4,821 bases of DNA from a virus (lineage: Duplodnaviria > Heunggongvirae > Uroviricota > Caudoviricetes). The stretch is from the IMG/VR virus record IMGVR_UViG_2706794669_000008; one strand, given 5' to 3'. This document shows, piece after piece, positions 1 through 4,821 of this stretch. Each line of letters starts with the position of its first letter. Position 1 is the stretch's first letter. Under the pieces are notes generated by a model. The model did no database searches. It worked only from the letters and a program-made list of their open reading frames with translations, and was not told the DNA's origin. The translations under genes and the position numbers were made by a program.

Positions 1-83
1 AGGGACAGCTGATAGAAACAGAAGCCACTGGAGCACCTCAAAAACACCATCATACACTAAATCAGTAAGTTGGCAGCATCACC
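1..83 (-). mobile_element. IS1 terminal fragment (IRL end; element body lies left of the window)
   Basis: Positions 1..83 are the exact reverse complement of the first 83 nt of IS1 as I recall it (GGTGATGCTGCCAACTTACTGAT... at 61..83 reversed). The 23-bp terminal inverted repeat ends at 83 and the sequence becomes AT-rich, non-IS DNA from 84. Confidence 0.9.
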
Positions 84-190: not shown

Positions 191-532
191 TTATTTAGAC
201 AAACTATCTAATTTTTGCGTCGCTTTTTGTGTTAGGTCGCTGTAACTGATAAACCCTACGTTAGNNNNNNNNNNNNNNNNNNNNNNNNNNNNNNNNNNNN
301 NNNNNNNNNNNNNNNNNNNNNNNNNNNNNNNNNNNNNNNNNNNNNNNNNNNNNNNNNNNNNNNNNNNNNNNNNNNNNNNNNNNNNNNNNNNNNNNNNNNN
401 NNNNNNNNNNNNNNNNNNNNNNNNNNNNNNNNNNNNNNNNNNNNNNNNNNNNNNNNNNNNNNNNNNNNNNNNNNNNNNNNNNNNNNNNNNNNNNNNGCAA
501 ATAATCAGACACCGTTTTTCCATCAGTTTCAA
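191..532 (-). CDS. hypothetical protein, mostly N-masked; boundaries and frame continuity uncertain
   Basis: Readable N-terminus MKLMEKRCLIIC (TTG at 532, first ATG at 523) and C-terminus ...NVGFISYSDLTQKATQKLDSLSK with TAA stop at 191..193. The interior 265..496 is N. Same strand as, and about 60-70 nt downstream of, the 595..972 ORF. No convincing Shine-Dalgarno. Whether the two readable ends belong to one ORF cannot be verified. Confidence 0.3.
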   Translation of the reverse strand: MKLMEKRCLIICXXXXXXXXXXXXXXXXXXXXXXXXXXXXXXXXXXXXXXXXXXXXXXXXXXXXXXXXXXXXXXXXXXXXXXXXXXXXXXNVGFISYSDLTQKATQKLDSLSK

Positions 533-594: not shown

Positions 595-972
595 TCATTT
601 TTTCCCTCCAAATACGATGCCCTCTACGTCTTTGGAAGCTTTTTGTGATGACCACTCCTCTGAATCAGGTGATTTAATTAAAAATATTGTATCTCCATCA
701 AAAATCGTATTTGTTCCGTAAAAATTCACATTTGATAGATCACCACCAAAAACCCTCTGCCCACTCGAGGTAATTGCCTCACCTAATTTAGTAAAATTAC
801 CAGCAATAGATGATTTTCTTTTTCCACTTCTATTCAAAGTGGCTTTAATTACACCACCACCATCCTTAGAGTTAAATAATTGAATGTCCACTCCAGCAGT
901 TGGTTGTATATATTTTGAAAGCTCTTTCTTGAACTTGTTAATATATTTATCTTTGTTTTCTTTGTTGGTCAT
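595..972 (-). CDS. hypothetical protein, 125 aa, Lys/Gly/Ser-rich, no recognisable domain
   Basis: Uninterrupted 375-nt ORF in roughly 30-35% GC DNA, where stop codons are frequent, so a chance ORF is unlikely. Single ATG at 972, TGA stop at 595..597. No signal peptide or hydrophobic segment, no Cys or His. Weak ribosome-binding site. Confidence 0.55.
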   Translation of the reverse strand: MTNKENKDKYINKFKKELSKYIQPTAGVDIQLFNSKDGGGVIKATLNRSGKRKSSIAGNFTKLGEAITSSGQRVFGGDLSNVNFYGTNTIFDGDTIFLIKSPDSEEWSSQKASKDVEGIVFGGKK

Positions 973-2145: not shown

Positions 2146-2459
2146 ATACCTACAGCATCACATTACCCTGGCCTCCGAGCAATAACCGCTATTACCGCCA
2201 TAATCGCGGGCGCACACACATCAGCGCAGAAGGGCAGNNNNNNNNNNNNNNNNNNNNNNNNNNNNNNNNNNNNNNNNNNNNNNNNNNNNNNNNNNNNNNN
2301 NNNNNNNNNNNNNNNNNNNNNNNNNNNNNNNNNNNNNNNNNNNNNNNNNNNNNNNNNNNNNNNNNNNNNNNNNNNNNNNNNNNNNNNNNNNNNNNNNNNN
2401 NNNNNNNNNNNNNNNNNNNNNNNNNNNNNNNNACCATCACCGAAATGGGGAATGAATGA
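2142..2459 (+). CDS. rusA: RusA Holliday-junction resolvase (interior masked by N at 2238..2432)
   Basis: N-terminus [32 protein letters not shown] and C-terminus TITEMGNE match RusA. GTG start overlaps the ybcO stop (GTGA). The readable ORF is 105 aa, shorter than the roughly 120 aa I recall, so the masked length may not be the true length. Confidence 0.85.
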
Positions 2460-2596: not shown

Positions 2597-2681
2597 AGTC
2601 AGAGATAACAATCAACTAATACTGTTTTGTTGATTTTTGCTTGTAATTGGCGTTCTGGTCTGATTTTTGTGGAGTAAGTTG

Positions 2682-3065
2682 ATGCGTGATATTCAGATGG
2701 TTCTTGAGCGTTGGGGAGCGTGGGCGGCTAATAATCATGAAGATGTGACCTGGTCGTCCATTGCCGCCGGTTTTAAGGGATTAATTACTTCAAAAGTAAA
2801 ATCTCGCCCGCAATGTTGTGACGATGACGCGATGATTATTTGCGGGTGCATGGCCCGTCTGAAAAAGAACAACAGCGATTTGCACGATTTATTAGTAGAT
2901 TATTATGTAGTCGGTATGACATTCATGTCACTGGCAGGTAAGCATTGCTGCTCTGATGGTTATATCGGGAAAAGGTTACAGAAGGCTGAGGGCATAATTG
3001 AAGGGATGTTAATGGCATTAGATATCCGGTTAGAGATGGATATCGTTGTTAATAACTCTAATTAA
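2682..3065 (+). CDS. quuD: late-gene antitermination protein Q (QuuD-like), 127 aa
   Basis: ATG at 2682 with GGAG at 2671..2674. Sequence [22 protein letters not shown]...[18 protein letters not shown]... matches my recollection of DLP12 QuuD, including the Cys-rich motif. The track start at 2667 is a TTG extension. TAA stop at 3063..3065. Confidence 0.85.
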
Positions 3066-3080
3066 TATGCCAATTGTTTA

Positions 3081-3117
3081 CTAAAAATTATTAAAAATGG
3101 GGCGTTGCAACGCCCCC
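3081..3117 (-). terminator. intrinsic terminator for leftward transcripts (nmpC and IpeX)
   Basis: Perfect 18-nt GC-rich palindrome GGGGCGTTGCAACGCCCC at 3099..3116. On the minus strand it is followed by ATTTTTAATAATTTTT (complement of 3081..3098). On the plus strand it is followed by A-rich sequence, so it is unidirectional. Confidence 0.55.
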
Positions 3118-3257
3118 AAAAATAAAGGGTAATATATAACAGAAGGTTTATATAGTTAGAAGCAAGGTTGTGCTCCTAAAGGAAGTGGCTTGAGGGAGCC
3201 ACTTATATGTTGGGGAGGCAAAGCCTCCCGCAACATATCTTTTAGTAATCAAATTAG
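3090..3257 (-). ncRNA. ipeX: candidate IpeX-like sRNA region (3' end / downstream of nmpC)
   Basis: From memory, IpeX is a roughly 167-nt sRNA overlapping the 3' end and downstream region of nmpC in DLP12, on the same strand. Here the distance from the nmpC stop (3254) to the minus-strand terminator U-tract (about 3090) is about 165 nt and the region is highly structured. Ends are not mapped. Confidence 0.4.
3183..3243 (+). terminator. candidate terminator for rightward transcripts (tR'-like), tandem hairpins plus CTTTT
   Basis: Hairpin A: AAGTGGCT / AGCCACTT (3183..3204, loop TGAGGG). Hairpin B: ATATGTTGGGGAGGC-AAA-GCCTCCCGCAACATAT (3205..3238, one bulged G), followed by CTTTT at 3239..3243. 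Sits between Q and the convergent porin gene. Confidence 0.35.
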
Positions 3258-4336
3258 AACTGGTAAACCATACCTACAGCAACGATATCATCGGTAGCAA
3301 CGCCAGATGCTTTCGTGAAATCGCTCTTATCAATCAGGTTGATTTTGTAATCAACAAAAGTGGACATATTTTTGTTGAAGTAATAGGTTGCACCTACATC
3401 AATATATTCAACCAGGTCCTGATCACCCCACGCACCCAAGTCTTTTCCTTTAGATTGCAGGTAAGCAACGGACGGACGCAGACCGAAGTCGAACTGATAT
3501 TGTGCAACTACTTCGAAGTTTTGTGCTTTGTTGGCAATATGGTTATTACCAAAAACAGTCATGTTCTGGGTTTCAGAATAGGTGGTAGCCAGATAGATGT
3601 TGTTCGCATCATATTTCAGACCAGCTGCCCATACTTCAGCATTTTGACCAGATGCATTCAGGCTGTTGTTACCGTAGATAACCTGATTATTAGTGCGGTC
3701 AGATTTAGCATAGGTTGCACCTACACCGAATCCTTCATACTCATAAGTAGTGGAGAAACCGAAACCATCACCATTAGCTTCAGTTACGTCAGTGCGGTCA
3801 TTTTTACCCTGATACTGAGCAGCAAAGTTCAGACCATCAACCAGACCAAAGAAGTCGTTGTTACGATAAGTTGCAACACCAGTGGTGCGACCAGTCATGA
3901 ACACATCTGTTTGAGTCCAAGTGTCACCACCGAATTCTGGCAGGACGTCAGTCCACGCACCGATGTCGTATGCTACACCGTAGTTACGGCCGTAATCGAT
4001 GGAGCCGTAGTCACCGAATTTCAGGCCAGCGAAGGCAAGACGGGTTTTATCTTTGGAGGAACCTTGAGATTCAGCGCGGTTGCCTTTGAATTCATATTCC
4101 CACTGACCGAAACCAGTCAGTTGATCGTTGATTTGGGTTTCACCTTTGAAGCCAAGACGGGCATAAGTAGTATCACCATCATCTGCATCATTAGAGGAGA
4201 AGTAGTGCTTAGCATTAACTTTCCCGTACAGATCCAGCTTGTTACTGTCTTTATTATAAATTTCAGCTGCCTGAGCAGACATCGCCATCAGTACTGATGC
4301 AGCTACAGCAGAAATTGCCACTGTTAATTTTTTCAT
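3254..4336 (-). CDS. nmpC: outer-membrane general porin, NmpC/OmpD family, apparently intact (360 aa precursor)
   Basis: Start chosen at the ATG at 4336 ([23 protein letters not shown] signal peptide, then [16 protein letters not shown]...). The track start at 4396 adds 20 implausible residues. C-terminal ...VAVGMVYQF ends in the Phe typical of porins. Strong similarity along the whole length to my recollection of OmpC, NmpC and OmpD. TAA stop at 3254..3256. Confidence 0.92.
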
Positions 4337-4726
4337 CGTGAGCCCTTTTTTTGAACTATTATTAAAAAATGATGTCATTGCGCGATAAATATTCATCTAA
4401 TCAATGTGATTATTTCAAGATGTAAGTTTTGGTTTCTCGTTTGATTTGTGAAGTAGATCTCTATTTTTATCTGAACTTTTTTCTATCGAATCCTATTCAT
4501 GGCTCTTGACTGAATAAAAATAAATCTATTAGCCAATTTATATTAACGGCTGTTATTTATAAGTGCTCTATAATTTGAAGGTTCAATTTAAACCGGCTAA
4601 AAATAACACTGGAAATTATTTGTTGGTTATTTGTTGGGATTTGCTTATGTATTTGTAGTGGTGTTTTCAATACTCGGTAGCATTCTCGCAAATATCATTT
4701 AGTGGTTTACGTACGTAAAAAATTGG
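4337..4726 (-). promoter_or_regulatory. AT-rich upstream regulatory region of nmpC; promoter not mapped
   Basis: About 390 bp of AT-rich non-coding DNA between the porin start and the IS1 end, the size expected for a porin control region. Contains a perfect tandem repeat (4616..4637) and a 14-bp palindrome (4706..4719). No confident -35/-10 pair identified by eye. Confidence 0.4.
4616..4637. repeat. perfect tandem direct repeat, 2 x 11 bp (TTATTTGTTGG)
   Basis: 4616..4626 and 4627..4637 are identical and adjacent. Confidence 0.8.
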
Positions 4727-4821
4727 GGTAATGACTCCAACTTATTGATAGTGTTTTATGTTCAGATAATGCCCGATGACTTTGTCATGCAGCTCCACCG
4801 ATTTTGAGAACGACAGCGACT
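4727..4821 (-). mobile_element. IS1 terminal fragment (IRR end; element body lies right of the window)
   Basis: GGTAATGACTCCAACTTATTGAT... from 4727 to the window end is the reverse complement of the last roughly 95 nt of IS1 (3' end of insB plus IRR) as I recall it. Same orientation as the left copy. Confidence 0.9.

Follow-up and report, generated by a model that had tools for sequence, protein, structure and literature searches.

IpeX is a small RNA (sRNA) of the DLP12 prophage of Escherichia coli K-12 and of phage PA-2, in which it is located downstream of the lc gene. A 2025 review has described IpeX as a 167-nt RNA that originates from the phage porin promoter within the porin transcript, is then processed, and controls OmpC, and other papers have given both OmpC and OmpF as its targets. 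Two groups of sRNAs can be compared with it: MicF and MicC, which block the translation of ompF and ompC, and the sRNAs derived from 3' untranslated regions (3' UTRs), of the CpxQ and SroC class. With regard to late-gene control, the described counterparts are the late promoter PR' with the terminator tR' and the StxS sRNA of the Shiga toxin (Stx) phages 933W and Sakai Sp5, and the PR', Q-utilization site (qut) and 6S RNA of lambda. In the present study, we analyzed a stretch of 4,821 nt from a virus of the Caudoviricetes (IMG/VR record IMGVR_UViG_2706794669_000008; the whole stretch is referred to as the window), and the element in question was the intergenic gap between quuD, a late-gene antiterminator gene of the Q family, and a convergent phage porin gene. 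Judged by sequence, this gap is the already known ipeX gene, the same gene as in DLP12. We hold with high confidence the overall explanation that the gap is ipeX, that a porin-ipeX cassette stands between Q and PR', and that the RNA is inferred to act by antisense pairing.

With the quuD stop codon ending at 3065 and that of the porin gene at 3254..3256, the gap measures 188 bp (3066..3253). An earlier note on this DNA, made from the letters alone, had described a 188-bp convergent Q-porin gap with hairpins, and the coordinates and folds confirmed this description. In MG1655, ipeX is located at 574365..574531 on the reverse strand (167 nt; supplementary table of PMC8313858), and in NC_000913.3 the nmpC stop codon occupies 574529..574531 and quuD ends at 574339. 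The MG1655 ipeX sequence aligned to 3256..3091 of the window with six substitutions, mostly in loops, and one indel (~96% identity), and K-12-type records matched at 96.4% identity across a 191-nt query. The alignment thus delimited a 166-nt homologue (3091..3256, minus strand) of the 167-nt MG1655 sRNA. The earlier note had suspected that a structured leftward RNA in the gap was IpeX and had asked for an alignment to the DLP12 quuD-nmpC region and to IpeX; the ~96% identity and the mapped coordinates bore this suspicion out. The RNA shares with IpeX of K-12 DLP12 and PA-2 its strand, its terminator and its position immediately past the stop codon of an nmpC/lc-type porin gene. In the window, ipeX makes up the 3' UTR of the porin mRNA, extending from the stop codon to the terminator U-run. 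The window differs from K-12 DLP12, which has IS5 58 bp before the porin stop codon, in that its porin gene is intact, which allows IpeX to be produced from the porin promoter. The RefSeq K-12 record NC_000913.3 lists micF and others but has no ipeX feature in 574340..574528, the quuD-nmpC gap. The window was also compared with Rfam (E ≤ 1) and gave no match to any family, and the presence of an IpeX model in Rfam was not confirmed.

The minus strand of the gap carries the intrinsic terminator of the porin-ipeX transcript at 3093..3116, as indicated by a terminator scan and by folding. It consists of GGGGCGTTGCAACGCCCC followed by ATTTTTAATAATTTTT (ATTTTT), with the stem at 3116..3099 and the U-run at 3093..3097; in the RNA, a 7-bp GC stem with a 4-nt variable loop is followed by AUUUUU, and the hairpin energy was −13.9 kcal/mol. 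Two terminator-like sites were found in 2600..3500, compared with 0.6 expected from shuffled sequences, and this terminator was one of the two. In the variant alignment, the stem was retained in 99.5% of cells and the loop was variable. A minus-strand terminator had already been claimed from the letters, and it is present as a sequence pattern. The full leftward RNA (3256..3091) was predicted to fold into five hairpins with an energy of −61 kcal/mol (z = −7.5), and 97% of cells in the five helices were paired across 29 distinct variants. Hairpin 1 (3205..3238) and hairpin 2 (3183..3204) stand in tandem; hairpin 3 (3156..3179, minus strand) has 9 bp, one of which switches between G-U and A-U; and hairpin 4 (3133..3154, minus strand) has a 7-bp A/U stem, all seven pairs of which are invariant, and an 8-nt loop (ACCUUCUG).

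A consensus scan of the minus strand over 3256..3500, at the porin 3' end, found no promoter-like site, which fits an RNA derived from a 3' UTR. Like the sRNAs of the CpxQ and SroC class, IpeX uses the terminator of its mRNA, shows no promoter-like site of its own, has been reported as processed, and has an AU-rich single-stranded stretch after the stop codon. The porin stop codon in its context, 5'-UAA/UUUG (3253..3256, minus strand), matches the RNase E motif RN/WUU as quoted in PMC7547250; UAA/UUUG is also the annotated IpeX 5' end and lies in a predicted single-stranded stretch. According to the mechanism that we propose, the porin gene would be transcribed leftward past its stop codon into a structured 3' UTR of ~160 nt that would end at the hairpin and U-run at 3116..3093. 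The IpeX tail would be released from the porin mRNA by processing, as the literature describes, and would lower the synthesis of host OmpC and OmpF. A lysogen would in this way replace its host porins with the phage-encoded one. Since phage PA-2 uses OmpC as its receptor, such an exchange would amount to superinfection exclusion.

The tandem hairpins (3183..3238) fold on both strands. The hairpin at 3183..3204 has a 9-bp stem as plus-strand RNA and 8 bp on the minus strand, and the hairpin at 3205..3238 has a 15-bp stem with one bulge and is followed on the plus strand by CUUUUAG (CTTTTAG, 3239..3245). On the plus strand, the folding energy of the pair was −36.2 kcal/mol (z = −7.0, equaled by 0 of 200 shuffles); on the minus strand it was −34.2 kcal/mol (z = −8.3), and no U-run follows there. 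Because the U-run is absent on the minus strand, the label "strand-specific" that the earlier note had given to the terminators of the gap holds as a description of the sequence pattern. Its candidate rightward terminator fared less evenly: the stable hairpins and a short T-run are there, but the T-run is weak and varies between strains.

These features raise the tentative possibility that the gap also serves as a two-way insulator, in which the minus-strand hairpin would end the porin transcript and the tandem hairpins with CUUUU would end read-out from quuD, which in the lysogen would protect the porin gene against antisense transcripts. Rightward transcription from quuD may then be stopped by the two 5' hairpins of IpeX before it collides with the porin gene. 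The strong 15-bp hairpin followed by CTTTTAGT, on the plus strand only, is consistent with this role, as is the arrangement in Lambda_2E9, in which a plus-strand hairpin followed by T8 separates the Q gene from a convergent moron. However, the T-run is only 4 nt long in the window (TTTT), extends to 5 nt in K-12 (TTTTT) and reads TTTG in a further strain, the base of the stem is A/U-rich, and the terminator scan did not call the tandem hairpins. A literature search found no paper joining ipeX with Term-seq, and the supplements of Adams et al. 2021 have no entries for ipeX, quuD or nmpC. As a rightward terminator, the tandem hairpins are thus plausible but weak candidates. The insulator role would be compatible with IpeX, as a second job for the same hairpins.

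The complementarity of IpeX to host porin mRNAs was evaluated by a local duplex scan and by energy comparisons with shuffled sequences. It was found that IpeX nt 109-123 (window 3148..3134) could form 15 contiguous base pairs, one of them G-U, with ompC −21..−7. This IpeX segment, 5'-AACCUUCUGUUAUAU, takes in the final 5'-arm base of hairpin 4 along with the entire loop and 3' arm of this hairpin, and the partner sequence, 5'-AUAUAACAGAGGGUU, is the Shine-Dalgarno region of ompC; only 4 of 1000 dinucleotide shuffles gave a run as long. In addition, IpeX nt 128-136 (3129..3121) could form 9 bp with ompC −31..−23, between the single-stranded CCUUUAUUU and AAAUAAAGG of ompC. The full duplex of IpeX 105-137 with ompC −31..−3 contained 27 bp in three blocks and had an energy of −26.7 kcal/mol. 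Within the ompC region −45..+12, this energy was reached by 0 of 1000 shuffles (z = −4.2), and the complementarity to the ompC translation-initiation region therefore extends beyond chance. In the ompC leader, the predicted counterpart of the IpeX loop CCUUCU (3146..3141) is an AGAGGG flank and AUAUAACAG, and in ompF it is AGGGUAAUA. The costs of opening for the IpeX-ompC pairing were ~3.7 and ~5.5 kcal/mol. For ompF, IpeX nt 118-131 (3139..3126) matched −13..+1 at 13 of 14 positions, from the Shine-Dalgarno sequence to the start codon, with an energy of −21.6 kcal/mol (76 of 1000 shuffles as good). The values for ompA (−11.4 kcal/mol, 764 of 1000) and for the leader of the phage porin itself (−10.8 kcal/mol, 507 of 1000) were at background. 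The predicted order of strength, with ompC above ompF and ompA spared, agrees with the reported phenotype. The pairing reached significance in the tests of run length and of the translation-initiation region only: full-length duplexes of IpeX with leaders of 140-190 nt gave an unrealistic pairing of whole molecules with marginal z-scores, and the energies from a windowed scan, compared with mononucleotide shuffles, were by themselves not significant.

The predicted anti-Shine-Dalgarno region of IpeX (3120..3152, minus strand) comprises the loop and 3' arm of hairpin 4 and the single-stranded stretch before the terminator. In 145 loci, which were gathered by a pattern outside the 15-nt block, this block was invariant, and the terminator loop and the flanks varied. 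On the host side, the ompC leader was at least 99% identical in 5,368 of 5,371 genomes. When the plus strand of the gap was compared with the sense strand of the ompC leader, 26 of 33 positions matched (E = 0.002 in a small search), and by a count made by eye a weaker likeness to ompC runs on into the first codons. This suggests that IpeX may have arisen as an inverted copy of a porin 5' end.

Taken together, these observations led us to a model to which we give an even chance: IpeX would be a classical antisense RNA, its invariant core (3120..3152) would be an inverted and diverged porin leader, and its CCUUCU anti-Shine-Dalgarno loop would pair with the ompC ribosome-binding site over 27 bp and with that of ompF more weakly. 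We infer that hairpin 4, through its loop and 3' arm, and the neighboring single strand pair with the ribosome-binding region of ompC, and with ompF to a lesser extent; such pairing would block the initiation of translation. The phage porin leader, which has no target, would escape IpeX. Like MicF and MicC, IpeX acts in trans and is encoded beside a porin gene, and the net effect is a porin exchange; MicF and MicC have imperfect complementarity to the ribosome-binding region of another porin, which for IpeX is predicted only. IpeX differs from them in that it is phage-borne and forms the 3' end of a porin mRNA instead of being transcribed from a separate, divergent gene. If the model is true, classical pairing would explain why the effect on ompC is independent of Hfq and that on ompF dependent on it. 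The OmpF effect of IpeX is reportedly Hfq-dependent, and the predicted order of strength agrees with this. The 27-bp pairing offers a simple hypothesis for an sRNA whose mechanism has been called unclear and has also been described as a "novel mechanism" that lacks obvious complementarity, and it fits lysogenic conversion. It is a prediction, possibly a new one.

Several points weigh against the antisense model or the structure on which it is built. The discovery paper reportedly saw no complementarity to ompC and an effect on ompC that did not depend on Hfq. For the 15-bp run to form, the 3' arm of hairpin 4, which lies within it, must open, and the ompF match alone was not significant. Among the 29 distinct IpeX variants, no two-sided compensatory change was found in any of the five helices, since the sequences are too similar; the covariation shuffle control was uninformative, the variants being too alike for support either way. 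With zero covariation, the IpeX structure stands on thermodynamics and conservation only. Finally, the IpeX 5' end at the porin stop codon is, for this window, an annotation carried over by alignment.

The alternative that IpeX represses OmpC without base pairing, by titration of a protein or by an indirect envelope-stress route, so that the complementarity would be a relic or a coincidence, appeared unlikely to us. It is reportedly the mode that the discoverers of IpeX suggested. The reported absence of complementarity and the reported Hfq-independent ompC effect speak for it, as do the non-significant scores of the full-length duplexes. On the other hand, the 27 bp are centered on the Shine-Dalgarno sequence and were equaled by 0 of 1000 shuffles, the pairing block is invariant while its flanks vary, and the predicted specificity is that of the reported phenotype. 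Moreover, the longest exact stretch in the ompC match is 10 nt, and a search with a word size of 11 would probably miss the match.

The earlier note had expected PR' and qut within the gap. We found instead that the homologue of the 933W and Sakai PR', the promoter of the nearest characterized Q relative, is located at 4705..4726 on the plus strand, where a truncated late promoter (essDp) was identified by alignment with the PR'-tR' region of 933W and with DLP12 and PhiR34_1. In the 933W record, the putative PR' overlaps the end of Q and has a −35 element TTTACG, a 16-nt spacer and a −10 element TATCAT. In Sakai Sp5, the PR' start site has been mapped by differential RNA sequencing (dRNA-seq) to 1,266,203, with the tR' 3' end 258 nt downstream (Sy et al., PMC7547250). 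The coordinates of that paper are offset by 142 nt from NC_002695.2; the offset was verified, because the 3' end then lands exactly on the T-run of a strong terminator. With this offset, the Sakai Sp5 start site lies 7 nt after TATCAT. The 933W/Sakai promoter, the downstream AGAGTGGTTAC box, and the CCCGCCG...GCGGG hairpin with its T-run were homologous to the sequence upstream of the holin gene (essD) in K-12 DLP12 and PhiR34_1, and no homology to the 933W/Sakai PR' was found within the gap. In the window, the homology starts at ~4690 and ends at 4726, with IS1 from 4727. The −35 element TTTACG (4706..4711) is retained inside a 14-bp palindrome, TTTACGTACGTAAA (4706..4719), and the −10 element, start site, pause/qut region, terminator and lysis genes have been replaced by IS1. 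The window thus holds a homologue of the PR' of the Stx phages and lambda, but on the far side of the porin gene and truncated by IS1.

The same position was found across related loci. Among 109 loci in which the ipeX core was present with at least 1.75 kb of downstream sequence, the motif GTTTAC[GA][AT][TA]CGTAAAAA occurred in 106, with few exceptions at a distance of 1.58-1.60 kb past the ipeX core, and in none of the 109 did it occur inside the gap. In Lambda_2E9, unrelated morons (a convergent lipocalin gene and ybgA) follow Q, and a 933W-like promoter is located ~1.9 kb downstream. A published paper cites control of the DLP12 essD operon by a Q-type antiterminator and RpoE, with a regulatory fragment from −121 to +650 (numbered as in its ref. 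28). Rightward Q-modified transcription running antisense into the porin gene, which the earlier note had also proposed, was not borne out, since PR' is situated past the porin gene and is directed away from that gene. By position and orientation, a Q-modified polymerase would start beyond the porin gene, move away and never enter it.

The perfect palindrome at the −35 element is TTTACGTACGTAAA in DLP12 and TTTACGATCGTAAA in 933W, and the central TA/AT difference preserves its symmetry; in Lambda_2E9 it is imperfect (TTTACAATCGTAAA). It is a candidate protein-binding site, perhaps a Q binding element. The 933W record labels as tR' the hairpin and T-run that follow the PR' start by ~25-50 nt. 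Evidently the Sakai transcript does not end at this hairpin, since its Term-seq 3' end coincides with a second terminator, 258 nt downstream. DLP12 has just the first of these two hairpins between PR' and the holin gene.

As a possible promoter in the gap, the earlier note had named TTGCAA (3105..3110) and TAATAT (3130..3135) with a 19-nt spacer. Its coordinates were right, but a consensus scan of the plus strand over 3066..3253 found no sigma-70-like promoter, and the proposed −35 element lies in the variable terminator loop, where strain variants read TTGCAA, TTGAGA, TGGAAA, TGTCAA and TTGAAA. A second −10-like string, TATATAGT, is present at 3146..3153, and the region is A/T-rich. It is therefore highly improbable that PR' and qut lie in the gap and drive rightward transcription antisense through the porin gene to the late genes: PR' does directly follow or overlap the end of Q in 933W and lambda, TAATAT and TATATAGT do fall within the invariant stretch, and a hairpin with a short T-run does lie downstream, but the scan found no plus-strand promoter-like site in the gap, the sole −35 candidate is 19 nt off in a strain-variable loop, in 106 of 109 loci the homologue of the mapped PR' is found past the porin gene, the invariant stretch is accounted for by the antisense match to ompC, and published work puts Q-type control on the essD (lysis) operon and assays its own regulatory region.

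The phage porin gene is intact, of the nmpC/lc type, and located at 3254..4336 on the minus strand (Pfam Porin_1, E = 3e-153); it is annotated as OmpC/OmpD in related genomes and phages. The similarity of QuuD to Q of 933W ends at residue ~120, homology to the 933W PR' resumes at 4705, and the PR' motif is found past the porin gene in 106 of 109 loci, indicating that porin and ipeX were inserted between Q and PR'. These comparisons show the two genes as an apparently self-contained lysogenic-conversion cassette (moron) between Q and PR'. In DLP12-type prophages, the cassette parts Q from its promoter by ~1.6 kb, so that "late promoter just after Q" is an unsafe annotation rule. In the window, with PR' cut by IS1 and the lysis genes gone, QuuD would be left without a cis target, as an orphan Q. 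In E. coli Q5, porin and ipeX are present with a short 3' remnant of quuD and without lysis genes, between ybcM and yedK; in this arrangement, the cassette persists after the loss of Q and PR'. The cassette has been repeatedly struck by insertion sequences. Strain JB2 carries an IS5-like element inside ipeX, directly after AAATAAAGGG, and one IMG/VR contig carries an IS200-like element between ipeX and the porin stop codon.

The quuD gene (2682..3065, plus strand) encodes a Q-family late-gene antiterminator of the Q933W/Q21 type, as indicated by Pfam PF06530 (E = 3.5e-53) and by RefSeq annotation. QuuD shared 78% amino acid identity with Q of the Stx phage 933W up to the point at which the similarity stops and 88% with Q of Lambda_2E9, and it matched the Q21 structures 6P18/6JNX distantly (E = 7.6e-7). 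The last ~7 codons of quuD belong to the inserted porin cassette and not to the Q933W-like backbone.

The gap sequence was found in 2,510 of 5,426 complete E. coli genomes (~46%) at 90-100% identity, and numerous IMG/VR prophage contigs also carry it. Of the ~2,900 gap-matching places in E. coli records, two were on plasmids and not on chromosomes. In one scan of the GTDB species representatives with an exact 24-nt core as the pattern, two records matched, both of E. coli, and at this stringency no homologue of the ipeX core was found in the other species representatives. The ipeX gene itself is thus a known sRNA in a very common prophage remnant, and finding it again is routine annotation.

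The window as a whole is a fragment of a DLP12-type lambdoid prophage between two IS1 ends (1..83 and 4727..4821). Its gene order is ybcN-like/NinB, ninE, ybcO, rusA, ylcG, quuD and the convergent porin gene, an order that is also annotated for E. coli K-12 DLP12, O55:H7 CB9615 and the viable phage PhiR34_1. N runs at 265..496 and 2238..2432 mask sequence, including most of rusA. The left end of IS1, inserted into PR', occupies 4727..4821 on the plus strand; it matched thousands of IS1 family transposase records, and the DLP12 alignment breaks at 4727. The sequence at 1..83 (plus strand) is recognizable as the right end of a second IS1 copy with the same orientation. Direct IS1 copies thus flank the 4.6-kb prophage fragment, as in a composite transposon. 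Among 5,426 complete E. coli genomes, none contained the exact IS1-PR' junction (4727), so that the fragment may come from an IS1-rich genome of the Shigella-like kind; in strain CV839-06, IS1A is annotated in the equivalent region, at a site that is not identical. On the minus strand, 595..972 holds an open reading frame of 125 amino acids with no Pfam match, and this segment corresponds to hypothetical proteins encoded between replication protein P and ybcN in other E. coli.

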